DNA from: Myxococcota bacterium | Lineage (GTDB): Bacteria > Myxococcota_A > Polyangia > Fen-1088 | Assembly: GCA_025934105.1 (NCBI GenBank) | Contig: JAICYS010000001.1 | Coordinates: 15,324 to 79,323 of the forward strand | Length of the DNA: 64,000 bases | Reading direction: 5' to 3' | Program-made: the position numbers and the translations under genes | The notes under the pieces: generated by a model | Told to the model about the DNA's origin: nothing | Databases searched by the model: none | What the model saw: only the letters and a program-made list of their open reading frames with translations | Shown here: positions 4,540 through 62,049 of the stretch, one piece after another | How the letters are laid out: each line of letters begins with the position of its first letter | Position numbering within the stretch: the first letter of the stretch is position 1

Positions 4540-4543
<4 letters not shown>
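2..4543 (+). CDS. Type I modular polyketide synthase, 5'-truncated by the window edge: (AT C-terminal part)-DH-ER-KR-ACP
   Basis: The frame is open from position 2 (AQVAGALSLDDA... is the stretch that follows GHSxGE in AT domains), so the listed start at 8 is only an internal GTG. Motifs seen: AT YASH (VDYASHCPQM, 281..292); DH HPLLG (788..802) plus LAHHLVNGRVVLPAAAY, YGAPF and LFDAALQ; ER LIHAAAGGVG (2738..2767); [10 protein letters not shown] (3356..3379), LDD, and Tyr in AGYAAGNAF (3782..3784); ACP GFDSL (Ser 4262..4264). An acidic docking-like tail precedes the TGA at 4541..4543. Confidence 0.93.
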
Positions 4544-11130
<6,587 letters not shown>

Positions 11131-11135
11131 GCTAG

Positions 11136-11954
11136 CTACGACTCGCAGGCGCGGCGATACATCGGCTCCCAGGTGTCGTCCCACTGGCGGACGCAGTCCT
11201 GGCGTGCCGTGGTGAAGCGGTCGAAGTCGCGGTTGAGGGCGTGGGTCCGCCCGACGTTGGTGACGTGCATCCAGGTGTCGAGCGCGTCGGCCAGCGTGAT
11301 CGGGCAGCCGAGCTGCTCGCCCAGCCGAACCATGAGCCGGGCCGCGGAGCGCCCGTAGGCGTCGAGCACGGCCAGGAACCGCGGCCCGCCGGTGTCGATG
11401 GCGCCGAAGTTCTGTTCGTACATCGCCCACGAGACCTGGGAGTGCTCCGCCTCTTCGGCCATGTGGTACAGGAAAATGTAGTAGGTCCCCGGGTGCTTCA
11501 TCCACCGGGGATCCCCGGCGTTCTCCATCACCAGGACCGACTGGACGCCGAAGGAGGCCTCGATGGCGGCCGCGACGAACGCCAGCTCCTCGGCCGCGGC
11601 GTCCATCCTGAGCAGCGACGTGTCGACGAGGTTCGGGATGCGGCCGAGGCACGGGTCGTGACGGTAGGCGCCCGAGCCGAGCGCGGTCTCGTTGACCACG
11701 TGGCAAGCGGCCGAATGGCGCGCCTCCTGGGTCAGGAATGCCTTCTCGTCGGTGACCGGCGCCTCGGACGGATGCTGGCGCCGCAGCGCGAGCAGCACCA
11801 TCTCGAAGTACTCCGCGAAGACGCTGAAGCTGAACATGCCCAGCGATTCGACCCGGCCCAGATCCGCCTCGAGCGCCGCGAACGTCTCCTTTCGCGCCGC
11901 GCCCAACACGGACGAGGGAACCTCCCGGATGCGCAGCTCCTTGAACTTCTTCAC
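11136..11954 (-). CDS. Putative diiron-carboxylate (ferritin-like / 'metal-dependent hydrolase'-type) protein, function unknown
   Basis: 272 aa when started at GTG 11954. That GTG overlaps the upstream TGA as GTGA and has GGGGAG 8 nt upstream. The track's 11993 start is also a GTG and would give a 43-nt overlap. The protein has a twofold E-x(29-36)-E-x-x-H pattern: E48 (FAEYFE) ... E77-A-R-H80 (H codon 11715..11717), and E132 (AIEASF) ... E168-A-E-H171 (H codon 11442..11444). LTQEARHSAACH and YHMAEEAEHSQVSWAMY resemble the signature helices of the Pfam 'Metal_hydrol' (PF10118-like) / diiron oxygenase families, as far as I recall them. Local GC looks slightly lower than in the PKS genes. Confidence 0.7.
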   Translation of the reverse strand: MKKFKELRIREVPSSVLGAARKETFAALEADLGRVESLGMFSFSVFAEYFEMVLLALRRQHPSEAPVTDEKAFLTQEARHSAACHVVNETALGSGAYRHDPCLGRIPNLVDTSLLRMDAAAEELAFVAAAIEASFGVQSVLVMENAGDPRWMKHPGTYYIFLYHMAEEAEHSQVSWAMYEQNFGAIDTGGPRFLAVLDAYGRSAARLMVRLGEQLGCPITLADALDTWMHVTNVGRTHALNRDFDRFTTARQDCVRQWDDTWEPMYRRACES

Positions 11955-14275
11955 GCGACGGTCTCCCCGTTCCAGTAACGCTCGCGCTGCCACGGGTAGG
12001 TGGGCAGATCGACGGGCCGCAGGCCCCGCGGGTACTGGCGCGCCCAGTCGATGCGGCAGCCGAGCGTGTAGAGACGCGCCATCGCGTCCAGCATCGCGTC
12101 GCGTGCCTCACCGCCGCCCTCGATGCTGGGGACGAAACCACCAGCCTTGCCCGGCGGCGCCAGCGCCGGCGCAATCGACAGGCCGGGGACAGACCGCGGG
12201 CTCACTTCCAAAAAGACGTCGTATCCTTGCTCGGCCGCGGCGGCCGCCGTCGGGTAGCTGGGAATGCGCGTGGCGGCGGGCGCGATCTCGCCGCGCGCGC
12301 AGACGATCCGGGCAGCCTGCTCCAGCGGCAAGGCGCCTGCCACGTGCGCGGCAGCGATCCGTCCGAAGCCGTCGCCGACGATGGCGTGCGGTTCGACGCC
12401 CCAGGCCCGCCAGAGCGAGGCCAGCGCCACCTGGAGAGAGAACAGGCAGTGGAGCTCGGCGTCTCGATCGTCGGCCGCCCCGGACGCGAGTTCCGCCAGC
12501 ACCGACGAGGCGCCCGCCTGCAAGAAGGCCGCGTCGCAGGCGGCGAGCGCCGCGCGGAACTCCGGTTCCACCTCCGCCAGCGCGCGCGCGCCGCCGGCGG
12601 ACCGTGGCCCCCGCGCCGGGAACGCGAACACCAGCCTGCGGCGAGAAGGCGCCACCCGCCCCGCCCTGACGCCCGGCCGGCCCTCGCCCCGCGCGCAGGC
12701 CGCCAGCTCCTCGCTCGCCTGGCGGGCGGAGCGCGCCACCAGCGCCAGCCGGAACTCGTGGTGAGAGCGGCGCACGTTGGCCGTGAAGCAGATCCGCCCC
12801 AGCTCACCGTCGGGCACCCCGCCGATTCGATCCGCGTAGCGGCCCGCGGCCGCCCGCAGCGCCGCCTCGCTCTTGGCCGAGATGGTCAACAGCCGCGGCC
12901 CGGCGGGCAGGATTGGCTCGTCCACCGACTTCGGCGCTTCCTCCAGCACGACGTGCGCGTTGGTCCCGTTCATCCCGAAGGCGCTCACCCCCGCGATGCG
13001 CGGCGCGCCGCCGCGCGCCCAGGGCCGACCGGTGAGCGGAATCTCGAACCGCGTCCTCTCGAAGGCGATGTTGGGGCTGAGGCGCTTGAAGTTGCGGTGG
13101 GGCGGAATGAAGCCCGCGTCCAGCGCCAGCACCGTCTTGATGATCCCGGCGATGCCCGAGGCTGTCTCCAGATGGCCGATGTTGGTCTTGATCGAGCCGA
13201 GCAGGCAGGGCGTGCCGCCGGGGGTCGGCGAGCCGAGCACCTCTTTCAACGCCTGGGCCTCGATGGCGTCGCTGAGCGCGGTGCCCGAGCCGTACGCCTC
13301 GACGTACGAGACCTGCGCCGGAGCCACCCGGGCCTGGGCCAGCGCCCGTCGCAAGACCGCCGCCTGCGCCACCGGGTTCGGGGCCTTGATCGACGCGCTG
13401 CCGCCGTTCTGGTTCACGGCGGCCCCGCGGACCACCGCGAGGATCCGATCGCCGGCGGCCTGAGCGTCCGACAGCCGCTTGAGGACCAGCGCGCCGCAGC
13501 CTTCGCTGCGGACGTATCCGTCGGCCGCGGCGTCGAACGTCTTGCACTGGAACGACGGCGAGACGATCCCGGACTTCGCGTACCCGTCATTCAGGTACGG
13601 CGACAGGTTCAACATGACCCCGGCCGCCAGGGCCATGTCGCTGGTCTGGAGCCGCAGGCTCTGGCAGGCCAGATCGACCGCCACCAGCGACGAGGCGCAG
13701 GCCGCCTCGACGGCGATGCAGGGGCCGCCCAGCTCCAGCGCGTACGACACGCGCCCGCAGGTGAAGCTCTTGCCGTTGCCCATCGCGAAGTGGAATGGGT
13801 CGCGCGCGCCGGCGGCGGCGGTCATGAATGCGTAGTCGCTGGACGAGATGCCCAGGAAGACCCCGGTCAGTGAGCGACGGACCGTCTCGATCGGCTGTCC
13901 CGCCCGCTCGAGCGCTTCGTGACACACCTCGAGCACCAGGCGCTGCTGGGGATCCATGGCCGCGGCCTCCTGCGCCGAGATCCCCCAGAAGCCGGCGTCG
14001 AACTGGTCGGCCCCGCGGATGAATCCGCCCCGATGACCCTGCCAGTCTCCCGGCCGATCGGGGGGCACCTCGCCGATCGCGTCGCGCCCGTCGACCAGCA
14101 GCTGCCACAGCTCTTCCGGACTGTCGGCGCCGGGGAAGCGGCAGGCCAGGCCGACGACGGCGATCGGCTCGTCGCGCGCCGCCTCCAGCGACTTCACCTT
14201 GGCTTCCAGCGACTCGATCGCCTTGAAGGCGCGACGCATGGCGGTCGTGGCGTCGGGTGTCGGCTTGTCAGGCAT
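11951..14275 (-). CDS. Stand-alone PKS-like protein: divergent KS (Cys-Tyr-His) plus eroded AT remnant; no ACP and no TE
   Basis: ATG at 14275 (MPDKPTPD...) overlaps the upstream stop by 8 nt (ATGCCTGA). Residues upstream of it in ORF 11951..14410 are an Arg-rich shadow. The docking coil AMRRAFKAIESLEAKVKSLEAARDEPIAVVGLACRFPG is present. KS residues: Cys in EAACASS (13697..13699); Tyr replaces His in EAYGSGTALSDAIE (13292..13294); the second His is kept in KTNIGHLE (13172..13174). AT remnant: ARGPRSAGGA in place of GQGxQWxGMG, GDGFGR in place of GHSxGE (12368..12376), and the YASH/HAFH segment is missing. The post-AT linker LPTYPWQRERYW is retained. Confidence 0.85.
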   Translation of the reverse strand: MPDKPTPDATTAMRRAFKAIESLEAKVKSLEAARDEPIAVVGLACRFPGADSPEELWQLLVDGRDAIGEVPPDRPGDWQGHRGGFIRGADQFDAGFWGISAQEAAAMDPQQRLVLEVCHEALERAGQPIETVRRSLTGVFLGISSSDYAFMTAAAGARDPFHFAMGNGKSFTCGRVSYALELGGPCIAVEAACASSLVAVDLACQSLRLQTSDMALAAGVMLNLSPYLNDGYAKSGIVSPSFQCKTFDAAADGYVRSEGCGALVLKRLSDAQAAGDRILAVVRGAAVNQNGGSASIKAPNPVAQAAVLRRALAQARVAPAQVSYVEAYGSGTALSDAIEAQALKEVLGSPTPGGTPCLLGSIKTNIGHLETASGIAGIIKTVLALDAGFIPPHRNFKRLSPNIAFERTRFEIPLTGRPWARGGAPRIAGVSAFGMNGTNAHVVLEEAPKSVDEPILPAGPRLLTISAKSEAALRAAAGRYADRIGGVPDGELGRICFTANVRRSHHEFRLALVARSARQASEELAACARGEGRPGVRAGRVAPSRRRLVFAFPARGPRSAGGARALAEVEPEFRAALAACDAAFLQAGASSVLAELASGAADDRDAELHCLFSLQVALASLWRAWGVEPHAIVGDGFGRIAAAHVAGALPLEQAARIVCARGEIAPAATRIPSYPTAAAAAEQGYDVFLEVSPRSVPGLSIAPALAPPGKAGGFVPSIEGGGEARDAMLDAMARLYTLGCRIDWARQYPRGLRPVDLPTYPWQRERYWNGETVA
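12185..12645 (-). other. Eroded acyltransferase remnant (about 150 aa, nucleophile Ser absent)
   Basis: Runs from RRLVFAFPARGPRS (about 12601..12645) to VFLEVSPRSVPGL (about 12185..12225). G634-D635-G636 (12368..12376) sits where GHS is expected. Confidence 0.8.
12935..14175 (-). other. KS domain of the orphan protein, with HGTGT His replaced by Tyr
   Basis: Runs from EPIAVVGLACRFPG (about 14135..14175) to GTNAHVVLEEAP (about 12935..12975). It also diverges at NQNGGSASIKAPN (canonical NQDGRSxGLTAPN) and has a shortened N-terminal loop (DRPGDWQGHRGGFI). Confidence 0.8.
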
Positions 14276-17200
14276 GGTCTTCTTCTGTTCGATCCAGGCG
14301 ATCCAGCTTGGCCAGCAGCGCGGCTTCGATCTGGTCGTCCGGCAGCAGGTCCGCCTCCGTCGGCGGCTCGGCCGGCGCGGCCGCCGCCTGGTTCGGCGGC
14401 GCCTCCTCATCGACGGGCGCTCCCATCAGCTTGGCGAGATAGGGCACCAGCTCTTCGATCGATCGGCTGGCCCACAACACGGTCGAGGGAAGGCGCATTC
14501 CGAAGCGGGCCTCCAGCCGATCCCGCAGCTCGAGGTCCATCAGCGAGTCGAAACCAAGAGCGTTCAGGGGGGCGGCCGCGTCGACGGCCGCGGCCGGCAG
14601 CCGCAACAACCCGGCGATCTCCGCCTTCACCTCGGTCTGCAGCCGGTGGCGTCGCTCGGACGGCGCGAGCGCCGCGAGCTCGTCCCGCAGCCGAGCAGCG
14701 GGCGCAGCCTGGGGCGCCCTCTCGCTCAGCAGCCGCGACAGCAGCGGCCAAGCGGAGGGCAGGCCGGCGGCGTCGCCCGGGCCGCGGAGCTCGAGGCGCA
14801 TCACCGCGATCTGGGGGGCGGAGAGCTCCAGCACCCGGTCCAGCGCCGCCATCGCGTCGGCGGCCGCCAGGCCCGCGTCCCAGCCGATGCTGATCGCCGG
14901 CAGCCCCGCGGCGGCCCGCAGATGGGCCAGGCCGTCCAGGAAGGCACTCGCCGCCGCGTCGCTGCCGTGCCCCGGCGATCCCAGCACCGCGCCGCTCGAC
15001 GAGAACATCACGAAAAAATCGAGCGAAGAGGTCCCGCGGGTCCGGGTGTGCAGGTTCCAGGCGCCCCGAACCTTGGGCGCCATCACCCGCTCGAGCCCGC
15101 CGTCATCGATGGCGCCGGCCGCGTGGACGATCCCGCGCAACGCCGGCATCTCCGTCCGGATCCGCTCGAGCAGCCCGGCGACCTCCCGCGGCTCCGCGAC
15201 GTCGCACCGGGCGACGACCACCTCGACCCCGCCCGCGGCGAGCTCGCCGATCGCCTGGCCGGCCTCGGGCGGCGGATCCCGGCGGTCGGCGAGGACCAGG
15301 TGCCGCGCCCCTTTCGCGACCAGCCAGCGGGCGGTTTCCAGGCCCAGCCGACCCAGTCCGCCGGTCACCAGGTAGGTGTCGCCGCCGATGGCGGGCGCCG
15401 TCTCGGCCGCGGCGATCGGCGTCTCGGGGTCGTCCATCGTGACGACGGTCAGCGGCCCGCGCTGGCCGGCGGCCGCGCCAAGCTGCGCTTCGAGCTGGGC
15501 GATCGGCACGCCGCGGACGTCGACGGCGCCGCCGAGAGCGGCGAGGTGCCCTTCGGCCCCCTGGATCGCGGCCGCCAAGCCAGCCGGCGCCTCGACGGCC
15601 AGCGCCCGCAGATCGGCGGTCAGCCGCCAGACGTTCGGCGGCGTCGGCGTGGCGCTACTCGGTCCCGCCGAGACCCAGCGTCCGAGCGGAGCCAGCAGCG
15701 CCGACCAGTTCGGGTCGGACAAGTCGTCCCAGGCGGCGCCGGTCCCGATGACGACGTCGTAGCGCCGGCCCCCGTTGGCGGCCAGCGCGTCGGCGGGCGA
15801 GCTGTCCGGCGGGATGGTGCGGAACCGCTCTCCCGGTGCGCCGCCGAGGGCCACCACGGACGCGCCGGCGGCGGCCGCGATCCGGGCCGCGGCGCGTCCC
15901 TGCGGACAGGCACCGTCGCTGATGAACACCGCTTCGCGCCCGACACGCGCAAGCCCGACGACCGCGTGGTGCGCCGCCGCGACGATCGGCAGCGTGGCGG
16001 CCGCGAGCTGCGCGCCCAGAGCGGGCGGCAAGGGGATCACGGCACCGGCGTCGATCGCGACGTGGGTGGCCGGCTCTTGCGCCACCAGGGCCACCACCTC
16101 GTCTCCGACGGCGAACCGAGCGGCGGCCGTCGGCCCGACGGCCGTGATGCGCCCCGCGCAGGCGGCGGGGCGTCCCGGCGTGCGGTCGAGCGTCGCCGCC
16201 GAGACCGCGAGCTCCACTTCTCCGGCGGCGGGCTCGCGGCGCGCGAAGGCCCGCAGGCCGTCGCCGGCGAGATGAAACGAGCGCCCGCGGGCGGGACGCG
16301 GTCGCCGATCGCCGGCGCGCGCCCGGGTCAAGCGGGCGACCCGCCGTTCGCGCCCGCGCAGCGCGATCTGGTTCTCGTCCAGGTCCGAGCGGAGCTCGTC
16401 CGCCAGGGCCGCCAGCGCGTCGGCGTCGGGCGAGGCGGGCAGGTCGACGCACGCGCACCGAAGCTCCGGGTGCTCGAGCGCAATCGTCCGCCCCAGCCCC
16501 CAGAGCGCGGCCAACGCCGGCGCGACCGGCCCGCCACCGGCGGGCTGCGCGCCGCGCGTGACCAGCCAGAGGCGCGGCGGTCGGGCCAGCTTCGCGGCGG
16601 CCACCGTCTCGACGATCGCGAGCACCCCAGCCCAGGTCTCGACGGCGCCGTCGGCGATCGCTTCCGCGCCGACGTCGGGCGCCAGATAGACAATGCCGCC
16701 GACGTCCGGGTCGGCTGACGCGGAGAGCCGGCGCACCGCCTGGGCCACGTCGGGCGAGAAGGCCAGCCGGTGGCCCGCCTCCTCGACGGGCTGGCGCAGC
16801 GCACCGGCCAGAGCTTCGTCCCCCAGCGCGACCCAGGCGTTTCCAGCGCGCGCGGGCGGCGCGGGCAGGCTCTGCGGCTCCCAGTCGACGGCGAACATCC
16901 AGTCGTCGACCAGGCGGCGCGACGGGCCTACCCGCTGGAACTGGAGGTCGCGCAGCTCGACGAAGACCTGGCCGTCCTCGCCCAGTAGCAACACGTCACC
17001 GCGCGGCCGATCGCCGCGCGCGCTCTGGTCGACAATGCACGCGTGAGCCGAGAGCGCGCCTTCGGGACGGGCCCCGACCACCACCGACCCGATCGCCACC
17101 GGCACCAGCAGCCCCGGCGCGACCGTCGAGATGGCCGCGCCGCTCGCCTGGAAGCAGGCGTCGAGCAAGGTCGGATCGACCTCGCCGGCCATGGCGCGCG

Positions 17201-20200
17201 CCGTGGGATCGGCCGGGCGGAGGCGCGCCAGCACCTCCCCCGCTCCCCCGACCACCCGGTCCAGGCGGCGAAGCCGCGGGCCGAGATCGATCCCGCCCCG
17301 CCGGATCGCTTCGTAGAACTCGTCGACCCCGACGGGCCGCGGGCAGCGCGACGCGATCGCGGCGGGCGGCTGGGCCGAGGCGGCGGCCGGCTCGCGCGCG
17401 GCGCGCAAGTCCCCGGACGCGTGGACGCTCCAGCCGGCGGCCGAGGGGCTGGCGATGCGAAACGATCCCGCCCCGCCGGCGCGTGGCGTGAACAGCAGCT
17501 GCGCCATCCGGGTCCCCTGCGCGGGCAGCTCCAGCAGCTGCTCCAGGCGAACGTTTTCGACCACGCATCTCGCGCCCCGGCCGAAGATCGCGCGGCCCGC
17601 CTCGAGCGCCATCTCGAGGTAGGCCGCCGGGGTGACGATGGCTCTGCCCGCTACCCGGTGATCGCCCAGATACGGAGACACGGCCGGCGACAGCTCGGCT
17701 TCCCAGACCCGCGTGCCGTCGGGCAGAGTCAATCCGTCGCCGGCCAGCAGCCCCTGTCCGAAGGCCATCGCCGGCCCGCGCCTTCCGTCGGTGCGGGCCG
17801 GCCAGTAGGCCTCGCGCTGCCAGGCGTAGGTGGGCAGCGACACCACGTTCCCCGCCGCCGTGAACAGCCGTTCCCACTCGACCGAGCGTCCGAGCGCGTA
17901 GAGCGACCCCAGCGTGTCCAGCAACGAGCGGCGCTCGTCCTCTTCGCGCCGTGTCGAGCCGAGGGCGGCCCCCGCCATCCCGATCGCCGACAGCGTGCTC
18001 TCGATCGACGGCGCCAGCACCGGCTGGGGGCTGATCTCCAGAAAGATCGCGTGCCCCTCACGCATGAGGCCCTCCAGCGACGGGGGGGACGGCGCCGGTT
18101 GGCGCGGGTTGGTGGCCGACCAGTACGCGGCCCCCATGAGCTCGCCCGGGATCGGCTCCGCCTTGGCCGTCGAATAGATCGGCACCCCCGCCGCGCGCGG
18201 CCGGATCGCCGCCAGCAACGCCTGAAGCTCTGCGCCGAGCGGCGGCTTCCGGCTGCGCAGCACGATGGCGCGCGCGGCGTCGGCCAGGTCCAGCGCACCC
18301 GCCACGTGCGCGGCCGCGACCTCGCCCAGGCCGTCGCCGACCACGGCGTCCGGCTCGATCCCCCACGACCGCCAGAGCGCGGCCAGCGAGACCTGCATCG
18401 CGAAGATCAGCGGGACGGCCACCTCCTCCGTCCACCGCTGCGCGGCCGCGTCCGAGGTCAACATGTCGGCGGCCGACCACCCCGTCACGGCTTCGAGGGC
18501 GGCGTCGCACGCCGCCAGCGAGTCGCGAAACACCTTCTCCGAAAGCAGTCCCCGGCCCATCCCGACCCACTGCGACCCCGGACCGGAGAACACGAAGACG
18601 ATCCGCTCCGCCGCTCCCGCCCGGAGCTCCGGGCGCGCGCCACCGACTTTCGCGGGCGCTTGCTCCTCACCCGCGGCCACCGCGCGCAACCCGTCGACTA
18701 GCTCGCGCCGGGTCGCGCCCACCACCAGGCGGCGAAACCGATGGTGGCTCCGGCGTACCGCCGCGGTGTACGCGACATCGGCCAGCGGGTGCGTGCCCTC
18801 GGCCAAGAACGCCGACCACCGCTCGGCGAGGGCCCGAAGGTCGGCCGGGCTCCGCGCAGAGATCGGCAGCACCATCGGCCGGCCGTCACCGTCGGCGGCC
18901 GCCTGTTCACCGGCGGCCGCCGGCGACGGCACCGCCTCCAACACGGCGTGCGCGTTCGTCCCCGACCAGCCGAACGAGCTCACGCCCGCGATCCAGGGCT
19001 TGCCGTCCGCCGGCCAGGCCAGCGGCTCGCGCGAGACGACGAACGGGGTGTTCTCCAGCGCGATGTGCGGGTTCAGCCGGCGGAAGTTGATCTGCGGCGG
19101 GATGATCCCGCGCGACAACGACAGCGCCGCCTTGATGAGACCGGCCACCCCGGCGGCGCCCTCCGTGTGCCCGAGGTTGGCCTTGAGCGATCCCAGGACG
19201 CAGCGGTCGCCCGCCCCGCGGCCGCGGCCCAGGACCTCCTTGAGGGCCTCGACCTCGATCGGATCGCCCAGCGCGGTTCCCGTCCCGTGGGCCTCGACGT
19301 AGCCGACCGCGGCGGGCGGGACGCCGCCGGCCGCCAGGGCGCGCTCGATCACCTCGCGCTGGGCAGAGCCGGCCGGCGCGGTGAGCCCGTTCGATCGCCC
19401 GTCGTGATTGACCGCGGTCCCGCGCACGATCGCGATCACCCGATCGCGGCTGGCGAGGGCGTCGCCCAAACGCTTGAGGACGACGACGCCGCACCCCTCA
19501 CCGCGGGCGATGCCGTCGGCGCGCGCGTCGAACACCTTGCAACGCCCGTCGCCCGCCAGGAGCTGCATCTCCAGCATCACCCGCATGACCTCGGGCGACA
19601 GCACCAGGTTGACGCCCCCCACGACGGCCAGCGCGGACTCCCGGCGCCGCAGACTCTCGCAGGCCAGGTGAACCGCCACCAGCGACGACGAGCAGGCGGT
19701 GTCGACCACCACGCTCGGGCCGTGCAGATCGAAAATGTAGGACACCCGGCCCGCCAGCATGTTGTTCGACACGCCGGTCCCGGTGTGAGACCCGACGGCC
19801 TGCGGATCGCGCGCGCAGAGCGTCGCGTACTCGCCCCCGCCGCAGGCGCCGATGAAGACGCCGGTCGCCGTCCCGGCCACCGCCTCCAGCGGCAGACCCG
19901 CGTCCTCCAACGCCTCCCAGATGCCCTCCAGGATCAGCCGCTGCTGAGGATCGATCTGGACGGCCTCGCGCGGCGAGATCCCGAACACCGCCGGCTCGAA
20001 CTGGTCGACGCCCTCGATGAAGCCACCCCAGCCGGTCGGCGCCAGGTCGGGGCTCCGCTCGAGCAGCGCTTCGGCGTCCCAGCGTGACTTCGGGACGCGC
20101 GTGATCCCGTCGACGCCGTCGAGGAGCGCGCGCCAGAGCCCGTCGGGCGAGTCGGCGCCCGCGAAGCGGCACGACATCCCCACGATCGCGATCGGCTCGG

Positions 20201-20306
20201 GCGGCTCGCGCAGGAGCTCGGCCAGCAGGCCGCGCTTTTCGGGGCCCAGGGACGCGATCAGCTTCGACAGCTTGTCGGCCGTGGAGGCTCCACCATCCGC
20301 GCTCAT
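14268..20306 (-). CDS. Type I modular PKS, module M8: KS-AT(dead, truncated)-DH(variant)-ER(dead)-KR(dead)-ACP
   Basis: ATG at 20306 (MSADGGASTADKLSKL...) overlaps the upstream TGA (ATGA), with GGAGGAG about 7 nt upstream. The KS is intact (TACSSS, EAHGTGT, NLGHTE). In the AT, GPGSQWVGMG is present, but GHSxG reads GDGLGE (18330..18338) and about 85 aa including the YASH/HAFH region are missing. DH reads LGDHRVAGRAIVTPAAY, DLGPRL instead of YGPxF, and LLDACFQ. The ER-like stretch has VFISDGACPQGRAAARIAAAAG where LIHAAAGGVG is expected. In the KR, TGGLGRLG is present but GHGSDAAASAF replaces GQxNYAAANAF (Asp codon 14958..14960 at the catalytic Tyr position). ACP is LGFDSL (Ser 14544..14546). 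Confidence 0.88.
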   Translation of the reverse strand: MSADGGASTADKLSKLIASLGPEKRGLLAELLREPPEPIAIVGMSCRFAGADSPDGLWRALLDGVDGITRVPKSRWDAEALLERSPDLAPTGWGGFIEGVDQFEPAVFGISPREAVQIDPQQRLILEGIWEALEDAGLPLEAVAGTATGVFIGACGGGEYATLCARDPQAVGSHTGTGVSNNMLAGRVSYIFDLHGPSVVVDTACSSSLVAVHLACESLRRRESALAVVGGVNLVLSPEVMRVMLEMQLLAGDGRCKVFDARADGIARGEGCGVVVLKRLGDALASRDRVIAIVRGTAVNHDGRSNGLTAPAGSAQREVIERALAAGGVPPAAVGYVEAHGTGTALGDPIEVEALKEVLGRGRGAGDRCVLGSLKANLGHTEGAAGVAGLIKAALSLSRGIIPPQINFRRLNPHIALENTPFVVSREPLAWPADGKPWIAGVSSFGWSGTNAHAVLEAVPSPAAAGEQAAADGDGRPMVLPISARSPADLRALAERWSAFLAEGTHPLADVAYTAAVRRSHHRFRRLVVGATRRELVDGLRAVAAGEEQAPAKVGGARPELRAGAAERIVFVFSGPGSQWVGMGRGLLSEKVFRDSLAACDAALEAVTGWSAADMLTSDAAAQRWTEEVAVPLIFAMQVSLAALWRSWGIEPDAVVGDGLGEVAAAHVAGALDLADAARAIVLRSRKPPLGAELQALLAAIRPRAAGVPIYSTAKAEPIPGELMGAAYWSATNPRQPAPSPPSLEGLMREGHAIFLEISPQPVLAPSIESTLSAIGMAGAALGSTRREEDERRSLLDTLGSLYALGRSVEWERLFTAAGNVVSLPTYAWQREAYWPARTDGRRGPAMAFGQGLLAGDGLTLPDGTRVWEAELSPAVSPYLGDHRVAGRAIVTPAAYLEMALEAGRAIFGRGARCVVENVRLEQLLELPAQGTRMAQLLFTPRAGGAGSFRIASPSAAGWSVHASGDLRAAREPAAASAQPPAAIASRCPRPVGVDEFYEAIRRGGIDLGPRLRRLDRVVGGAGEVLARLRPADPTARAMAGEVDPTLLDACFQASGAAISTVAPGLLVPVAIGSVVVGARPEGALSAHACIVDQSARGDRPRGDVLLLGEDGQVFVELRDLQFQRVGPSRRLVDDWMFAVDWEPQSLPAPPARAGNAWVALGDEALAGALRQPVEEAGHRLAFSPDVAQAVRRLSASADPDVGGIVYLAPDVGAEAIADGAVETWAGVLAIVETVAAAKLARPPRLWLVTRGAQPAGGGPVAPALAALWGLGRTIALEHPELRCACVDLPASPDADALAALADELRSDLDENQIALRGRERRVARLTRARAGDRRPRPARGRSFHLAGDGLRAFARREPAAGEVELAVSAATLDRTPGRPAACAGRITAVGPTAAARFAVGDEVVALVAQEPATHVAIDAGAVIPLPPALGAQLAAATLPIVAAAHHAVVGLARVGREAVFISDGACPQGRAAARIAAAAGASVVALGGAPGERFRTIPPDSSPADALAANGGRRYDVVIGTGAAWDDLSDPNWSALLAPLGRWVSAGPSSATPTPPNVWRLTADLRALAVEAPAGLAAAIQGAEGHLAALGGAVDVRGVPIAQLEAQLGAAAGQRGPLTVVTMDDPETPIAAAETAPAIGGDTYLVTGGLGRLGLETARWLVAKGARHLVLADRRDPPPEAGQAIGELAAGGVEVVVARCDVAEPREVAGLLERIRTEMPALRGIVHAAGAIDDGGLERVMAPKVRGAWNLHTRTRGTSSLDFFVMFSSSGAVLGSPGHGSDAAASAFLDGLAHLRAAAGLPAISIGWDAGLAAADAMAALDRVLELSAPQIAVMRLELRGPGDAAGLPSAWPLLSRLLSERAPQAAPAARLRDELAALAPSERRHRLQTEVKAEIAGLLRLPAAAVDAAAPLNALGFDSLMDLELRDRLEARFGMRLPSTVLWASRSIEELVPYLAKLMGAPVDEEAPPNQAAAAPAEPPTEADLLPDDQIEAALLAKLDRLDRTEEDHA
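14880..15378 (-). other. M8 KR catalytic subdomain with Tyr->Asp and Asn->Ser
   Basis: [12 protein letters not shown] sits at about 15345..15378. SSSGAVLGSPGHGSDAAASAFLDGLAH was checked on the DNA (14935..14990). The segment between HAAG and PKV is also shortened (AIDDGGLERVMAPKV). Confidence 0.75.
15440..16290 (-). other. M8 ER-like region lacking the NADPH-binding motif
   Basis: The MDR-like layout is retained (GEVELAVSAA..., AATLPIVAAAHHAVVGLARV). LxHxxxGGVG is replaced by FISDGACPQG (about 15850..15935), and there is no EIGKRD-like segment. Confidence 0.7.
18000..18610 (-). other. M8 AT remnant (about 200 aa; GDG in place of GHS; small subdomain deleted)
   Basis: Runs from RIVFVFSGPGSQWVGMG (about 18550..18600) to GHAIFLEISPQPVL (about 18000..18060). 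D658 sits at 18333..18335 and G659 (the Ser position) at 18330..18332. Confidence 0.8.
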
Positions 20307-23300
20307 TTCAGCTCCTCCAGGGTCTTCAGCAGCAAGGACTCGACCTCCAGCTCGGACAGCGCCGCGATGCGGGCGGCAGCCGCCGCGGTCTCGTCGGGCG
20401 GCGCGCCGGCGGCCGGCGACGTCGCTTGCTCCGGCGTCTCTTGCTCGTCGAGGCCCAGGCTCCGACAGACGTAGTCGGTCAGACCCTCGACGGTCGGGTA
20501 GTTGAAGAGCACCGTCGCCGGCAAGCGACATCCGACCGTCGATTCCAGCCGGTTGCGAAGCTCCACCACCATGAGCGAGGTCATCCCCATCTCGTTGAAG
20601 CTGAGAGAGGTCTGCGACGCGGTCAGCTCCTCGAAGCCCAGCACCTGCGCCACTTCGGCGCGCACGTGCGCGGTGACGAGGTCGCGCCGCCGCTCCGGCG
20701 CGGTCTCCCGCAGGCGGCGAAGAACCTCCGTCTCGCCGCTCGGCGCCGGCCGCGCCTCGGCGCCGGTCGCGGCGCGCGGCAGGAGGTGGCGCGCGAACGC
20801 CGCCAGGCCCGTGCGGCCGGCCCCGGCGGCCAGCCTGGACCAGTCCAGGTTGGCGACCGCGGCTTGAGTGGCCTGGTCCACGAGGAGCCTGTCCAGGGCG
20901 GCCAGCGCGGCGGCCGGCTCCAGCGGGGCGACGCCCCGGGAGGCGCGGCGCCGCTCCTCGTCGGAGCTCGCGGACGCCATGCCGCCCGACGCCCAAGGGC
21001 CCCAGTTCACGCTGAGCGCGGGCAGCCCCTGGTGGCGGCGGTGGTGCGCCAGCGCGTCCAGGAACGCGTTGGCGGCCGCGTAGTTCGCCTGGCCCGGCGA
21101 TCCCAGCAGCGCCGCCAGCGACGAGAACAGCACGAAACAGTCGAGCGGCAGGCCGCGCGTGGCCGCGTGCAGGTGCCAGGCTCCCGCGATCTTCGGCGCC
21201 ATCACGGGCACGAACCGGTCCCAGCTCTGGTCGTCGAGGAGGGCGTCATCCAGCACGCCGGCCGCGTGGAACACGCCCCGCAGCGGCGCCGCCGGCGAGA
21301 GGTCCGCCAGGATCCGGGCCACGTCGGCCGCACGCGAGACATCCGCGCGCACGACGGCGATCTCGGCGCCGCGCCCGCGCAATTCGGCGATCGCCGCCCG
21401 CGCCTCTTCGGAAGCAGGCGAGCGCCCTGCCAGCATCAGGTGGCGCGCGCCGCGGTCGACGGCCCAGGACGCGATCTGCAGGCCGATCGCGCCCAGCCCG
21501 CCGGTGACCAGGTAAGTCCCCGACGGCGAGAAGGACGGCAGCCCGCCGGCGCTCCCCCGGGCGGCCAGCAGCCGCGGCGCCCATCGCTGGCCGCCGCGGA
21601 TCGCGACCTCCCGCTCGTCGTCGCGTGACGTGATCTCGACGGCCAGGGCCTCCACCGTCGCCGCGTCATCCCCGTCGACGTCGACGATCACGCAGTCGAG
21701 GCCCGGCACCTCCAGCGCCGCCACCCGGCGCAGCCCCCAGATGGCCGCCTGCGCGAGGCCATCCGCGGTCGGACCGGCTCCCGCCGCCGCCGCGCCGCGG
21801 GTCACGATCGTGATCGCCGGCCTCGCGCCGCCGCCCGCGCCGTCCAGCGCGCGCAGCAGCAGGAGCAGCGGCTCCACCGCCGGCCGCTGCGCGCCCACCA
21901 GCGCGTCGCCGCCGCCGGCGGCGCGTCCGTCGAGCGCCCAGAGGTGGACGATGCCGGCCACCGACCCGCCGTCGCGGGTGGCGTGCTCGAGCAGCGCGCG
22001 GTAGTGCGCGGCGTCGCTGGGATCGATGGCGGCCCGGTCGGGCCCGAGGGCGAGCGCCTCGGCTCGCTCCACCACCACGCACGAATGTCCCGCCTGGCGC
22101 AGCCGGGCCAGGAGGCGCTCCGACAGCCCGCCCTCGCCGGCCAGGATCAACCAGCGGCCGGCGGACGGCTGGTCGAGCGGCGCCTCCGCGCGCGGCGCCG
22201 GTTGCCAGTCCACCTCGTAGCGGGGAGCTCCCCCCTGGTCCTGGTTGCGCAGGAACAGCTCCCGCGGCGCGCGGCGGACCATCAACCCGGTGATGCCGAG
22301 GACCCGGCTCCCGTCGTCGGCGTGAAGCGACACGGCCCCGTCCAGCACGTCGCCCGATCCGCGGACGTTCAGGGAGGCGTGTCCCCACAGCGCGCGCGGC
22401 GCCGCACGCTCCAGCGCCACCCGTTCGATGCTCATCGGCAGGTAGATTTCGCGGTCCGCGTCGGGGCCGACCAGGACCACACCCAGGAGCTGCATGGCGG
22501 AATCGATCAGGACCGGGTGGATGGACCGGCCGCCCAGATCGAGCGCCGCGTCGGGGCGCCGGATTCCGCCCAGGACCTCGCTGCCGCCGCGTCGCAGGCT
22601 CACGATCCCCTGGAACGAAGGCCGCAGGTCGATTCCGACCTGGCGGAGCTGGTCGTAATAGAGGCCCGCGTCGTAGCTCTCGGGCAGCCGGGCGCGCACG
22701 GCCTCGAGGTCGGCGGACGCGTCCGGCGCGAGCGCGCCGGCACAGAGTTCGCCGACCGCGTGCTGGCGCCAGCCCGGACCGCCGCTGCGCCGGTCGCGGC
22801 TGACGATCCGAAACCGATGGCGGCCGGGACCGACCGGCGCGAGCACGATCTGGACGGTGGTCGCCGCCTGCTCGTCCAGCACCAGCGGCTCCTCGAACAC
22901 GACGCGCTCGGCGGCCGGCCGGTCGGTCTGCAGCACCTCGCCCGCAGCCATCAGCGCCAGGGCCACGTGCGCGGCGGCGGGAACGACGATGCGGTCGTAG
23001 ACCCGGTGGTCGGACAGGAACGGCAGCGCGCCGACGCTGAGCTGGGACTCGAAGATCCGCTGGTCGATCCCCAGCGCCAGCGGCCGGCCGAGCAGCGGAT
23101 TGACCGGAGGCTCGCCCGGCTCGCCCTCCCGGCGCGACGCCGCGGCCGGGCCTTCGAACCAGTGGCGCTTGCGCTCGAACGGATAGGTGGGCAGCGGGAC
23201 GCGCACCCGCTCGGGACCTGCGTCGAAGCGCTGCCAATCGACCTCGATCCCGCCCAAAAACAGCTCGCCGGCCGCGCGCGCCATCTGCTCGGCGGCGGGC

Positions 23301-25873
23301 TTGCCCTTGGACAGCGAACCGACGCAGACCGTCGCGCGGCGGTCCGCCCGCTCGACCAGGGCCAGCAGCACGGGCGCCGCGCCGATCTCCACGAAGGCGT
23401 CGCACCGTTCGGCGCGCAGCGCCTGCATCGCCTCGACGAAGCGCACCGGCTCGCGCAGGTGGCGCCGCCAGTAGCTGCTGTCGCACAGCTCGCCGTCCGC
23501 CACGCCGCCCGTGACCGCCGAGACGTAGGTGCACGCGGGCCGCGCCAGCCGCACGCCGGCCACCATCGCCTCGAACGGCTGAAGGACTTCGTCGAACACC
23601 GCCGAGTGGAAGGCGTTCGCCACCGCCAGTCGGGTGGTCACCATCCCGGCGGCGGTCAGCTCGCCGGCGGCCGCCTGCAGCGGCTCGTGCGGGCCCGAGA
23701 TGACGACGTTGCTGGCGGCGTTGTGCGCCGCCACCACCACCTGCGGGTGCCGCGACAGCGCGGCCTCGACCTCCAGCCGTCCCGCGTGAACGACGGCCAT
23801 CCCTCCCCGGCCGGGCACCGCCGCCATCAGCTTCGATCGTTCCACGATCAGCCGCACGGCGTCCTCGACCGACAGGACTCCGGCCGCCCAGGCCGCGGCG
23901 TACTCGCCCACGCTGTGACCCACGACCACCGACGGTTCGATCCCCCAGGATCGCCAGAGCTCGACCAGCGCCTGCTGGATCGCGAAGGTCGAGATGGCCG
24001 CGTAGGTCGTCTCGTCGATCCGCGCCGCCGCGCCGGCCGCGGGATAGAGGATCGACAGCAGCCGATCGCCGAGCGCGTCCCCCACCAGCGCGTCGCAGCG
24101 GTCGACGGCCCGGCGAAAGACCGGTTCGGCCTGGTACAGCTGCTCGCCCATCCCCGGGTACTGGGCCCCCTGGCCGCCAAACAGGAAGGCGATGCGCGGA
24201 TCCGACCGGCGGCTGACAGGGCCGCGCGCCGCCGTCGAGGGGGCGCCCTCCCGGTGAACCCGCGCCAGCTGCTCGCGCAGGTGGTCGACCGATCGCGCGA
24301 CCAGCGCCAGCCGGTGTGGCAAGCGGGCCCGGCCGGCGTTCGCCGTGAAGCACACGTCCGCCAGCGACGGCGCCTCGGCGCTGGCCAGCGTCTCGGCGTA
24401 CCGGCGCGCCAGCTCGCGCAACGCGCCGTCGCTCCGGGCGCTCAGCACGAACAGATGAGCAGGCCGGGCCGGTCCGACCGCCGCGGGGCGCGCCGGCGGC
24501 GGTTCGCCGACCACCAGGTGAGCGTTGGTGCCGCTGATCCCGAACGAGCTGACGGCGGCCAGCCGCGGACGCTCCCCGGGTGTCCAGGCCACGGTCTCGG
24601 TGGGAACGTAGAACGGCGTGCCGGCCAGCGAGATGCGCGGATTCAGCGTGCGAAAGTGCAGGCTGGCCGGGATGGCCTGGTGCTCGAGGGCCAGCACGGT
24701 CTTGATCAGGCCGGCGATGCCCGCCGCCGCCTCGAGATGGCCAAGGTTGGTTTTGACGGACGCCAGCGCGCAAGTGCCGCCGCCAGCGCGGGGCGCCCCG
24801 TAGACCTCGGTGAGCGCGGCGACCTCGATCGGATCTCCCAGCGAGGTGCCGGTCCCGTGCGCTTCGACGTACGAGACGTCCTGCGGCGAGACGCCGCCGC
24901 GCGAGAGCGCTTCGCGCAGCACGCTCTGCTGCGCGAGCACGTTGGGGGCGGTCAGCCCGGACGAGCGACCGTCCTGGTTGACGGCGCTGCCGCGGATGAC
25001 GGCGAGCACCCGATCGCGCTGCGCGAGCGCGTCGGAGAGGCGCTTCAGCACCACGACGCCGCACCCCTCGCCGCGGACGAACCCGTTCGCGCCGGCGTCG
25101 AACGCCTTGCAGCGCCCGTCCGGCGACAGCGCGTGGTACTTCGACACGGCGATCGACGTCGCCGGCGAGAGCATCACGTTCACGCCCGCCGCCAGGGCCA
25201 CGTCGCTTTCGCGCCCGCGCAGGCTCTGGCAGGCGAGGTGAACGCAGACCAGCGACGACGAGCAGGCCGTGTCGACGGCGACGGCGGGCCCCTGCAGGCC
25301 CAGCACGTACGAGATCCGGCCAGCCGCGGTGCTGAAGGCCGTGCCGGTGCCGCTGAACGGACCGATGTGCTCGAAGCTGCTGAAGTCCTGCACGTAGGCG
25401 TAATCGAGGGTGCTGATGCCCAGGAAGACACCCGCCCGCCGGCCGACCAGGGCATCGGCCGACTGCCCGCCGTGCTCCAGGGCCTCCCAGGCCACTTCCA
25501 GCAGCAGCCGCTGCTGAGGATCCAGGTCCGCGGCCTCGCGGGGCGAGATGCCGAAGAACTCCGCGTCGAATTCGTCGACGCGATCGAGAAACGCGCCCCA
25601 GCGGCTGCTCATCTTGCCGGGCGCGTCGGGATCTGGATCGTAGAAGGCGTCGGCGTCCCACCGGGCGCCCGGGATCTCACCGACGGCATCCGTGCGGTCC
25701 GCCAGCAGCCGCCAGAACGCCTCCGGCCCGTCGGCGCGCGGGAAGCGGCAACCGACGCCGACCACCGCGATGGGCTCGGTGCGCTCCCGCTCCAGCTCCT
25801 CGACCTTGGCCTGCAGGCGCTTGACCGCCAGGAGGGCGCGCTTGACGGTCTCGTCGGCCGATCCGGTCCCCAT
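20303..25873 (-). CDS. Type I modular PKS, module M7: KS-AT(malonyl-type)-DH-KR-ACP
   Basis: ATG at 25873 shares one nt with the upstream TGA (TGATG), and AAGGAGG lies 6 nt upstream. The N-terminal coil is ETVKRALLAVKRLQAKVEELERERTEPIAVVG. Motifs seen: KS TACSSS / EAHGTGT / NLGHLE; AT GGQGAQYPGMG, GHSVGEYAAA, ETTYA upstream motif, NAFHS; DH NPLLG plus LSDHRVYDRIVVPAAAH; no ER; [28 protein letters not shown]; ACP MGMTSL (Ser 20576..20578). Confidence 0.9.
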   Translation of the reverse strand: MGTGSADETVKRALLAVKRLQAKVEELERERTEPIAVVGVGCRFPRADGPEAFWRLLADRTDAVGEIPGARWDADAFYDPDPDAPGKMSSRWGAFLDRVDEFDAEFFGISPREAADLDPQQRLLLEVAWEALEHGGQSADALVGRRAGVFLGISTLDYAYVQDFSSFEHIGPFSGTGTAFSTAAGRISYVLGLQGPAVAVDTACSSSLVCVHLACQSLRGRESDVALAAGVNVMLSPATSIAVSKYHALSPDGRCKAFDAGANGFVRGEGCGVVVLKRLSDALAQRDRVLAVIRGSAVNQDGRSSGLTAPNVLAQQSVLREALSRGGVSPQDVSYVEAHGTGTSLGDPIEVAALTEVYGAPRAGGGTCALASVKTNLGHLEAAAGIAGLIKTVLALEHQAIPASLHFRTLNPRISLAGTPFYVPTETVAWTPGERPRLAAVSSFGISGTNAHLVVGEPPPARPAAVGPARPAHLFVLSARSDGALRELARRYAETLASAEAPSLADVCFTANAGRARLPHRLALVARSVDHLREQLARVHREGAPSTAARGPVSRRSDPRIAFLFGGQGAQYPGMGEQLYQAEPVFRRAVDRCDALVGDALGDRLLSILYPAAGAAARIDETTYAAISTFAIQQALVELWRSWGIEPSVVVGHSVGEYAAAWAAGVLSVEDAVRLIVERSKLMAAVPGRGGMAVVHAGRLEVEAALSRHPQVVVAAHNAASNVVISGPHEPLQAAAGELTAAGMVTTRLAVANAFHSAVFDEVLQPFEAMVAGVRLARPACTYVSAVTGGVADGELCDSSYWRRHLREPVRFVEAMQALRAERCDAFVEIGAAPVLLALVERADRRATVCVGSLSKGKPAAEQMARAAGELFLGGIEVDWQRFDAGPERVRVPLPTYPFERKRHWFEGPAAASRREGEPGEPPVNPLLGRPLALGIDQRIFESQLSVGALPFLSDHRVYDRIVVPAAAHVALALMAAGEVLQTDRPAAERVVFEEPLVLDEQAATTVQIVLAPVGPGRHRFRIVSRDRRSGGPGWRQHAVGELCAGALAPDASADLEAVRARLPESYDAGLYYDQLRQVGIDLRPSFQGIVSLRRGGSEVLGGIRRPDAALDLGGRSIHPVLIDSAMQLLGVVLVGPDADREIYLPMSIERVALERAAPRALWGHASLNVRGSGDVLDGAVSLHADDGSRVLGITGLMVRRAPRELFLRNQDQGGAPRYEVDWQPAPRAEAPLDQPSAGRWLILAGEGGLSERLLARLRQAGHSCVVVERAEALALGPDRAAIDPSDAAHYRALLEHATRDGGSVAGIVHLWALDGRAAGGGDALVGAQRPAVEPLLLLLRALDGAGGGARPAITIVTRGAAAAGAGPTADGLAQAAIWGLRRVAALEVPGLDCVIVDVDGDDAATVEALAVEITSRDDEREVAIRGGQRWAPRLLAARGSAGGLPSFSPSGTYLVTGGLGAIGLQIASWAVDRGARHLMLAGRSPASEEARAAIAELRGRGAEIAVVRADVSRAADVARILADLSPAAPLRGVFHAAGVLDDALLDDQSWDRFVPVMAPKIAGAWHLHAATRGLPLDCFVLFSSLAALLGSPGQANYAAANAFLDALAHHRRHQGLPALSVNWGPWASGGMASASSDEERRRASRGVAPLEPAAALAALDRLLVDQATQAAVANLDWSRLAAGAGRTGLAAFARHLLPRAATGAEARPAPSGETEVLRRLRETAPERRRDLVTAHVRAEVAQVLGFEELTASQTSLSFNEMGMTSLMVVELRNRLESTVGCRLPATVLFNYPTVEGLTDYVCRSLGLDEQETPEQATSPAAGAPPDETAAAAARIAALSELEVESLLLKTLEELK

Positions 25874-28800
25874 CACTCGCCTCCTTCGATCACGTCGAGC
25901 AGACCGCGTAGCTCCGCCTCGGCTTCCACGTCGGACAGGCTGTCGATCTGCTGCGCCAGCGCCACCTCTTCGACCACCGCCGGCTTCGGCGCCTCGGGAG
26001 CGGCGCGCTCGGCGGCTTTCAGCTCGAGGCCCAGCTGCTGGGCGACGAATTCCGCCAGCCCCGCGATCGTCGGGTGAGCCCAGATCAGCGTGGCGCGCAG
26101 CGCGAGCCCCAGGCTCAGCTCGAGGCGGTTGCGGAACTCGAGCGCCGTCAGCGAATCGAGGCCCAGCGTGGTGAGCGGCTTGGCGTGATCGACGGCCTCG
26201 GCCGGGATGCGCAGCACCGCGGCCACCTCGCCCGCCAGGTGCTCCTCCAGCATCCGGCGCCGCGCCCCGGGCCGCGCGGCGCCGAGCGCGTCCTTGACCT
26301 GGCTCCGCTGCGCAGCGGCCGCCGCCGGCTCCTCGTGCAGCGCGGCCAGCAGCTTCCATTGCGCGGCCGACGGGTTCGACTCGAGCCACTGGCGGAGGTT
26401 CAGCGGCGCCACCGTGACCTGGGGGAGCGGCGAGGACAGGAGGCGCGCCAGGGCCCGAATCCCCTGCTCCGACGTGAGGCTGCGGACGCCCTGGCCGGCG
26501 ACCCGCTTGGCCCGGTTGTCCTGCGCCGCGGCCAGGCCGACCTCACCCCAGGCTCCCCAGTTCACGCTGAGCGCCGGTCGTCCCGCCGCATGCCGGTGGT
26601 GAGCGAGCGCGTCCAGGAACGCGTTGCCCGCCGCGTAGCTGGCCTGCGCGGGCGCCCCCAAGATCGACGCCAGCGACGAGAACAGGACGAAGAAGTCCAG
26701 CGGATCGCCGGCCGTGGCCAGATGCAGGTTCCAGGCCCCGGCCACCTTGGGCGCCATCACGGCCGCGAACCGGTCGGCGGTCTGCTTGACCAGGATCCCG
26801 TCGTCGAGAACACCGGCCGCGTGGATCACCCCACGCAGCGGCGCGTCCGGATCGCCGGCGGCGGCGGCGCGGACCCGCGCGACGTCTTCCGCGCGCGCGA
26901 CGTCGCCCTGCGCGACCAGAACGGTGGCGCCCGCGGCGCGCAGGCTGGCCAGCACGGCCTCGGCGCCGGCGCTGGGGGCCCGCCGTCCCATGAGGACCAG
27001 ACGCCGCGCGCCGCTCGCGACCAGGTGCTTGGCGGCCTCCAGGCCGAGTCCTCCGAGCCCGCCCGTGATCGCGTACGTGGCGTCGCCCCGGATGCGGACC
27101 TCCCGGCGCGCGGGCGCGATCGGCGCCGCCGGATCCCGCATGGCGATGACCACCTTGCCGCCGTGCTTGGCCTGGGCGACGTGCCGGAAGGCGTCCGCGG
27201 CCGAACGGGCCGGGAAGCTCTCGACGGGGAGCGGCCGCAGCCGGCCACTTGCCAGCTCGCCCACCAGCTGGGCCAGCGCGGACTCGACCGCCCGCGGGCG
27301 GCTGGTCAACATGCCGCGCAGATCCACCAGCGACATCGAGATCCCCTTCAGGAACGGCCGCAGCCCCAGCTTCGCGTCGTCGTAGTAGTCCCGCTTGCCG
27401 ATGTCCACGTAGCGCCCGTGCTGCCGGAGCACGCCCAGGCTGTACGGGATGAACTGGCCGGACAGTGAGTTGAGAACGACGTCGACGCCTTCGCCGGCGG
27501 TGGCCTCCATGGTCTGGCGCGCGAACTCGAGCGAGCGCGAGCTCATGACGTGGCGGACGCCCAGCGCGCGCAGCCGCTCGCGCTTCGCGTCGCTGCCGGC
27601 CGTCGCAAACACCTCGGCGCCCGCCAGCAGCGCCAGCTGCACGGCCGCCAGGCCCACCCCCGTCGAGGCGGCGTGAATGAGGACCCGTTCGCCCGGCTCC
27701 AGCCGGGCGGCCTGGCGCAGCGCCAGGTGGGCGGTCAGGAAGGCGATCGGGAAACCGGCGCCGGCCTCGAAGCTCACGCCGGCGGGCAGGTGCGCCGTCA
27801 ACCCTGCCAGCCCGACGACGTGGGACCGGAACGCGCTGGGGGCCAGGGCCAGCACGCGATCGCCCGCCGCGAACCCGTCGACACCCGGACCGACGCGGAC
27901 GATCCGCCCGGCGCACTCTCCGCCCAGGCGCGGAGACTGCGGGCGGCCACCAGGCGCGTCGTCGGGCAACGCGCCCAGCGCCAGCAGCACGTCCAGCAGA
28001 TTGAGGCCGGCGGCCTCGACCTCGATCTCGACCTCCGCCGGCCCCGGCGCGCGGCGCGCCACCTCACGCAGATCGAGCGCCTCCAGCGTCCCCGGGCTCT
28101 CGGTCTCGAGCGCGAACGGGCGAGCGCCGGCGGGGGCCTTCACCTCGCGGCGGCGGGGCTCCGGCGCGGTCCGCACCAACCGCGCGACGAAGCGGCGGCC
28201 GGCACGGAGCGCGATCGAGTCTTCGCCGGCGCCGCCCGCGCTGAGCTCGGCGGCCAGCGCGTCCAGGTCGGCCTCCGCGCAGCGCGCCGGCAGATCGATG
28301 CAGGTGGGGCGCAGCTCGGGATGTTCGTGAACCAGTGACCGGGCCAGCCCCCACAGCGGCGCGTGGCGGGGTGGGATCTCGCCGTCACTCTCGATCGCCT
28401 GCGTCCCCCGGGTCACGATCCACAGGCGCGGGGGCTCGCGCCCGCCCGCCTCCGCGAGCAGCTGAACCAGCCGCATGACCTCGACGCTGCTCGCCGACGC
28501 TCCCGCCGCGACCCCCCCGTCCTCGTCATCGATCGGCGACAGGTAGGCGATCGCGGTGCAGTCCGCAGCGGCGGCCAGCGCGCGCTCGATGCCGGCCAGC
28601 CCGGCGCCGGCGCGCATGCAGCGCGCCCCGGCGGTCTCCAATCGCCGGACGACCCGGCCGGCCAGCGCCCCGTCACCGACCACCATCCAGCTCCCCGGCG
28701 CGGAGCCCGCGCCGGCCGCCTGGCGGTCCTGCGCCTGCCAGTCGATCGCGAACAGCCAGTCCTCGTGCTCTTCTCGCCGGCGGCTGGCCCGTCGCAGGAC

Positions 28801-32283: not shown

Positions 32284-41779
<9,496 letters not shown>

Positions 41780-41783
<4 letters not shown>

Positions 41784-47221: not shown

Positions 47222-62049
<14,828 letters not shown>

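Follow-up and report, generated by a model that had tools for sequence, protein, structure and literature searches.

Modules of trans-acyltransferase (trans-AT) polyketide synthases (PKSs) lack an acyltransferase (AT) by design and are served by dedicated trans-ATs, and the KS0 modules of these systems are non-elongating, with a ketosynthase (KS) that is typically devoid of the HGTGT His. Module skipping, engineered or natural, in which a chain travels through the KS and/or the acyl carrier protein of a module without condensation, was reportedly described by Thomas and colleagues in 2002 (cited in PMC6164871). Hollowed-out modules have also been found in assembly lines of the cis-AT type. In the calcimycin PKS of Streptomyces chartreusis, CalA3 has the architecture KS-AT0-DH0-KR0 without an acyl carrier protein (ACP); its dead domains, with the Ser, His, and Arg of the AT replaced and the triad of the ketoreductase (KR) lost, form a structural scaffold surrounding an active KS with a Cys/His/His triad, which closes an assembly line lacking a thioesterase (TE) and releases the chain by amidation or hydrolysis (PMC10006239). 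Module 12 (M12) of the irumamycin PKS, likewise of the cis-AT type, combines an intact KS and an intact ACP with an AT whose GHS motif has become GHG; the module is proposed to rely on the neighbouring AT11 or on iteration, and is believed to extend (PMC11672594). AT-null module 6 of the 6-deoxyerythronolide B synthase (DEBS) can be complemented by the FabD of S. coelicolor and by trans-ATs (PMC6164871). Here we analyse module 8 (M8), a 2012-aa polypeptide encoded on the minus strand (14268..20306) of a 64,000-nucleotide stretch of contig JAICYS010000001.1 from a Myxococcota bacterium (hereafter the window), with the architecture KS-AT0-DH-ER0-KR0-ACP (DH, dehydratase; ER, enoylreductase) established from its translation, Pfam domains, and motif coordinates.

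Based on its sequence and on comparison with a single orthologous cluster, we tentatively interpret M8 as a non-extending relay that would have arisen through recent inactivation of its AT and KR, the ER having been dead since the common ancestor with that cluster. The ortholog lies on a 17.7-kb soil-metagenome contig (L001), found through a relative of MH, the small protein encoded two genes downstream of M8. Its gene order matches that of the window: an N-terminally truncated M8, the stand-alone KS-AT0 gene KSx, MH, and a convergent PKS.

Lesions of module 8 and their age

M8 is one genuine, still-translated module of a myxobacterial-type cis-AT line that combines PKS modules with a nonribosomal peptide synthetase (NRPS) module, and it shares 4 nt (20303-20306) at its start with the stop of the PKS gene upstream. 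Motif alignment of the KS (19083..20198) recovered an intact Cys/His/His triad in TACSSS (19683-19700), EAHGTGT (19275-19295), and NLGHT (19164-19178), and this KS is the most canonical in the window, with two deviations at 95 columns invariant in the other KSs. The ACP (14439..14633; Pfam and motif evidence) keeps the phosphopantetheine-attachment Ser in GFDSL (14541-14555).

Between these two domains the module is heavily altered. To score the AT lesions, we aligned the domain with the window's six intact ATs and with the ortholog. The remnant (17907..18599) comprises the large hydrolase subdomain only, in which GHS has become GDG (18330-18338) and GQG has become GPG (18567-18584) through single-nucleotide changes (CAC>GAC, AGC>GGC, and CAG>CCG). 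A single in-frame deletion of 79 aa relative to the ortholog, with its junction at ~18248/18249, spans from just past the conserved Arg (LRSR), which stays, through the YASH/His motif, so that the entire ferredoxin-like small subdomain is gone. Without the Ser, the His, and this subdomain, M8 is unable to load its own extender. In the ER remnant (15432..16316), aligned to four fully reducing modules, the NADPH motif (HAAAGGVG-type) is replaced by FISDGACPQG (15897-15926) and several deletions are present; no Pfam ER/ADH domain was matched in M8. The KR (14877..15377) reads GHGSDAAAS at 14946-14972, with the Tyr replaced by Asp (14958-14960) and the Asn by Ser, and has lost 8 aa after the IDD (LDD) motif and 23 aa behind the core. 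It still has Lys, Ser, and GGxGxxG, and the eight other KRs of the window are all intact. With these losses, the M8 KR is unable to reduce a beta-keto group. The DH (16923..17732) carries both its catalytic His (HRVAGRAIVTP, 17628-17660) and the Asp of DxxxQ (DACFQ, 17148-17162), and deviates only by a Pro shifted one position (HxxxGxxxxxP) and by YGP>LGP (LGPRL, 17271-17285); with both catalytic residues kept, it is not callable dead. Across the window, active-site lesions are limited to M8 and KSx; every KS, AT, and KR domain outside these two is intact.

These observations bear out most of an original prediction made from the window's letters, which had described M8 as an intact KS and ACP (Cys/His/His and DSL) around a dead AT, ER, and KR: all of its motifs and coordinates were reproduced, including the AT, ER, and KR substitutions, to which the GQG>GPG change, the ER deletions with the missing Pfam match, and the two KR deletions can now be added. 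Its conclusion that M8 cannot load its own extender likewise holds. Two details needed revision, namely the size of the AT deletion, estimated at ~85 aa and here 79 aa with the loss of the YASH region upheld, and the listing of the DH among the lesions, where LGP and the extra residue are real and the catalytic His and Asp are kept.

Sequencing or assembly error, which the prediction had named as grounds for refutation, is ruled out as the source of the lesions by the many independent substitutions and by in-frame deletions beyond which downstream homology is kept. We also considered gene conversion of the M8 AT by the AT0 of KSx, since both read GDG, and rejected it: the flanks of the M8 AT track the M8 ortholog rather than KSx, the point lesions each involve a single nucleotide, and M8 and KSx do not share deletion boundaries. 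The GDG triplets at the two former GHS sites (12359-12376 in KSx and 18321-18338 in M8) arose through independent point changes.

Comparison with the ortholog, to which M8 is 73% identical, separates the lesions by age. In L001 the M8 AT is intact, with GQGSQW, GHSLGE, a complete small subdomain, and a YASH motif that indicates methylmalonyl specificity, and the KR is an intact, deletion-free B-type domain with LDD and NYAAAN. The L001 ER is likewise dead, reading MISDGATPEG and carrying the same deletions as the window copy, which has a further 9-aa deletion of its own, and LGP in the DH is common to both. The ER lesion and LGP are thus ancestral features of an otherwise working module, and the AT and KR lesions are recent and specific to the window lineage. 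The four lesions of the original prediction are therefore neither equivalent nor simultaneous, and its question of whether they are conserved in orthologous clusters receives a split answer, positive for the ER and LGP and negative for the AT and KR.

L001 was the sole ortholog found. Two scans of genome contigs (with the MH protein and with its family alignment) and one of metagenome contigs returned no other; when metagenome contigs were scanned again, this time with an alignment of M8, generic PKS modules alone came up (≤52% identity over the best segment), and an M8 protein search returned generic multimodular PKSs only, mostly myxobacterial or actinomycete (≤54% identity over one third of the query). 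Another candidate contig, L012, was inspected and is not an ortholog.

KSx, MH, and the fate of the chain

The stop of M8 is overlapped by 8 nt by KSx (11951-14275, minus strand), a stand-alone KS-AT0 of 774 aa that has no ACP and is encoded by the final PKS gene of the minus-strand arm. The window KSx has a Cys/Tyr/His KS in which the first His has become Tyr (EAYGSGT, 13280-13300), whereas the L001 copy (5028-7625) is Cys/His/His, with HGSGT in place of YGSGT. The KSx AT is degenerate in both lineages, lacking the small subdomain and reading GEG in L001 and GDG in the window, where two further deletions have accrued. At conserved KS positions, KSx has accumulated 9 and 11 derived changes in the two lineages, versus 2 and 1 for the KS of pB, the last module of the convergent second PKS arm. 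This pattern suggests a non-canonical role for KSx, possibly CalA3-like release or the joining of two chains. Loss of its His in the same lineage as the M8 lesions indicates that decay was co-ordinated across the last two KS-bearing genes, a tie that the original prediction overlooked. A decaying cluster is added to the readings weighed below.

The start of MH (11136-11954, minus strand) overlaps the KSx stop, which implies that the two are translationally coupled. MH is a 272-aa member of PF10118, a family labelled 'predicted metal-dependent hydrolase' for which we found no relevant literature. Across 17 family members the invariant residues are E51, E77xxH80, E132, H164, and E168xxH171. An AF2 (AlphaFold2) model reached a confidence (pLDDT) of 93 with the 17-sequence alignment, compared to 45 with five sequences. 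A sequence search against the PDB gave no match, and MH has no solved close homologue; the best PDB fold matches were weak (E≥0.065, TM-score 0.40-0.46) and comprised ribonucleotide reductase R2, R2lox, stearoyl-ACP desaturase, aldehyde-deformylating oxygenase, and PaaAC, that is, dimetal-carboxylate or ferritin-like proteins, the exceptions being three low-probability helical matches (ranks 26, 44, and 50). On the strength of the model and these residues, MH can be regarded as a putative ferritin-like dimetal-carboxylate protein with a four-helix-bundle core and E/ExxH/E/ExxH ligands, which makes the 'diiron' label of the original prediction reasonable. The protein is very rare, with five close relatives among 5.8 billion clustered proteins and 14 family members at E≤1e-3 among 1.84 billion representative proteins; two distant relatives also sit after PKS genes, and one does not. 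Only 5 nt separate the MH stop codon from the end of the convergent pB gene (4540-11130, plus strand), a KS-AT-DH-ER-KR-ACP module without a TE, and two chains, one per arm, may meet at KSx and MH.

Under the relay interpretation that we tentatively favour, the ACP of module 7 would deliver the chain to the M8 KS Cys, the chain would move unextended from the M8 KS to the M8 ACP, and this ACP would hand it to KSx, which lacks an ACP and, in this lineage, the His for decarboxylative condensation. Processing or release would then fall to KSx and the translationally coupled MH, the dead AT, ER, and KR would persist as structural scaffold, and the product would be one methylmalonate-derived unit shorter than that of an L001-type line. 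The concurrent loss of the KSx decarboxylation His is in keeping with a terminus where condensation no longer takes place. Several points weigh against this interpretation. Neither His of the M8 KS has been lost and no relaxation is seen in this domain, as would also be expected of a KS that still condenses, and the domain lies outside the selection comparison described below because the L001 copy is missing the KS part. The ortholog count is one, so that the polarity of the changes rests on comparison with paralogs. The search for a discrete AT covered 64 kb of a 111.6-kb source contig. Finally, transfer from a KS to its own ACP without condensation is a step that we infer from KS0 modules and engineered skipping systems.

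The main alternative, possible but rather unlikely, is that M8 still extends, with its ACP loaded in trans, its KS condensing, and the resulting beta-keto chain passed on to KSx and MH. Loading could come from the malonyl-type AT of module 7, from a discrete AT in another part of the contig, or from housekeeping FabD; the AT remnant would then be a scaffold or docking site and M8 a cis-AT module becoming AT-less. Irumamycin M12 (PMC11672594) and AT-null DEBS module 6 (PMC6164871) provide precedents. Also in its favour are the window's most canonical KS, an intact ACP, and an AT large subdomain retained with both linkers at a ratio of nonsynonymous to synonymous substitution rates (dN/dS) of 0.2-0.5. 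Against it, the 64-kb window contains no gene for a discrete AT, as the original prediction had noted, every module other than M8 carries its own AT, and a complete halt of terminal elongation would be the simpler explanation for the loss, in the same lineage, of the KSx decarboxylation His. KS conservation does not separate trans-loading from the relay, the two options that the original prediction had set side by side, since too few residues are specific to decarboxylation. A fuller version, which we consider unlikely, would have M8 turning into an AT-less, trans-loaded module that still condenses with an extender from the neighbouring AT or from FabD and delivers an unreduced beta-keto thioester to a TE-free terminus composed of an ACP-less KS, either CalA3-like or joining the chains of both arms, and a very rare dimetal enzyme.

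Retention of the module 8 gene

Pairwise dN/dS between the window and L001, with pB as an intact control, was estimated at an unsaturated dS of ~0.45-0.52. Values were 0.34 for M8 as a whole, 0.32-0.49 for the AT remnant, 0.36 for the DH, 0.32 (95% interval 0.23-0.43) for ER0, 0.35 for KR0, and 0.24 for the ACP, compared to 0.23 for pB as a whole and 0.12, 0.17, 0.20, 0.17, and 0.11 for its KS, AT, ER, KR, and ACP, respectively; KSx and MH stood at 0.23 and 0.19. The dead M8 domains thus evolve at rates like that of the long-dead ER0, with constraint loosened and dN/dS clearly below 1, which indicates relaxed yet purifying selection, as scaffold domains would experience. ER0 itself is dead in both lineages yet 73% identical between them, presumably conserved as a spacer or scaffold.

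Relative to the ortholog, 13 indel events were counted in M8 and 3 in KSx, all of them in frame and followed by resumed homology; for the six large window-specific deletions, the chance of all being multiples of three is ~0.001. Together with a dN/dS of ~0.3, the in-frame indels show that the M8 gene has been kept and is not a pseudogene. A relative-rate test on derived substitutions at family-conserved sites, with paralogous domains as the outgroup, placed the acceleration in the two recently inactivated domains. Derived changes in the window exceeded those in L001 for the M8 AT (10 vs. 2, p = 0.039) and KR (13 vs. 3, p = 0.021), and were similar in the M8 ACP (3 vs. 3, p = 1) and DH (4 vs. 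2, p = 0.69) and in the control AT (1 vs. 2, p = 1), KR (1 vs. 4, p = 0.38), and KS (2 vs. 1, p = 1) of pB.

Taken together, the in-frame indels, the dN/dS values, the rate test, and the confinement of the lesions argue against a dead cluster and point to loss of catalytic constraint in one module while the polypeptide is still required. That the whole cluster, or its terminal part at the least, has ceased to function, with M8 and KSx as the first visible decay toward pseudogenes, would account for the many lesions gathered in one lineage, for an M8 dN/dS that is the highest of the genes compared (0.34 vs. 0.19-0.23), and for two PKS arms that both end without a TE inside the window, but this is improbable given zero frameshifts or stops across ~8.4 kb despite 16 indel events, dN/dS clearly below 1 in every domain, nine other modules free of lesions, purifying selection on MH, KSx, and pB, and an unscathed M8 KS and ACP.

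The assembly line and its relation to known systems

Type I PKS genes occupy nearly all of the window, at a G+C content of 72-76%, and docking sequences as well as top database matches are chiefly myxobacterial. The minus-strand arm begins with a loading module and two fully reducing modules (47218-62049), followed by KS-AT-DH-KR-ACP (41780-47221), KS-AT-DH-KR-ACP fused to an NRPS module of the type Cy-A(Ox)-PCP (32280-41783; Cy, heterocyclisation; A, adenylation; Ox, oxidase; PCP, peptidyl carrier protein), KS-AT-DH-ER-KR-ACP (25873-32283), and KS-AT-DH-KR-ACP (20303-25873), the last being module 7, directly upstream of M8. Within the NRPS module (residues ~1830-3167), the heterocyclisation domain carries FPLTDIQQAYWVGR and DLLTVD, and its DxxxxD motif leads us to expect a thiazole or oxazole in the product; a nitroreductase-type oxidase is inserted in the A domain, and a PCP is also present. 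The KS that follows the NRPS module, encoded within 25873-32283, is unusual in that it deviates at 21 conserved columns and has SVGH where NxGH is expected. The loading module (59890-62049, minus strand) consists of an N-terminal segment of ~170 aa followed by a KS-AT linker, an AT, and an ACP; the first ~25 residues of the segment loosely resemble a KS N-terminus, and no KS Pfam match was obtained for it. The start of this arm is flanked by a saccharopine-dehydrogenase-like NAD(P)-binding protein (62254-63321, plus strand) and by a type II thioesterase (63373-64000, minus strand) that is cut by the window end. The second arm (8-11130, plus strand) consists of fully reducing modules and ends in an ACP at 11130, with a docking-type tail at its C-terminus (LSADALEEAV...) for which no free downstream partner occurs in the window.

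For product prediction, M8 is not countable as a normal, fully reducing extension, and automatic tools would predict a wrong chain length or oxidation state. The window and L001 together offer a rare natural before-and-after pair, in which a product changes by module inactivation while the dead domains are kept as scaffold, and evolution-guided PKS engineering can make use of such a pair. The TE-less terminus, where an ACP-less KS-AT0, a rare dimetal protein, and two convergent arms come together, is more unusual than M8 itself.

Set beside the described systems, M8 resembles CalA3 in being of the cis-AT type and in keeping an inactive AT and KR around a Cys/His/His KS. It differs in having an ACP, DH catalytic residues, and an ER remnant, in the full loss of the AT small subdomain, and in its penultimate position, with another KS following. 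By its position as the last PKS gene, its dead AT, and its lack of an ACP, KSx would be a closer functional analogue of CalA3 than M8. These likenesses do not extend to any special sequence kinship of M8 or KSx with CalA3, whose structures (7wvz/8i4y) rank ~31st among the PDB matches of KSx. Unlike M8, irumamycin M12 has a single AT substitution, no subdomain deletion, and no hollowing out of its other domains. KS0 modules differ as well: the M8 KS has its His and M8 thus falls outside the KS0 definition, whereas KSx, the only one of the two to have lost this His, fits the KS0 feature of a Cys kept without the HGTGT-type His. Hollowed-out modules are already established through CalA3 and irumamycin M12, and M8 is another case, best described as a canonical cis-AT module shortly after its inactivation, at an early stage of ordinary assembly-line evolution.

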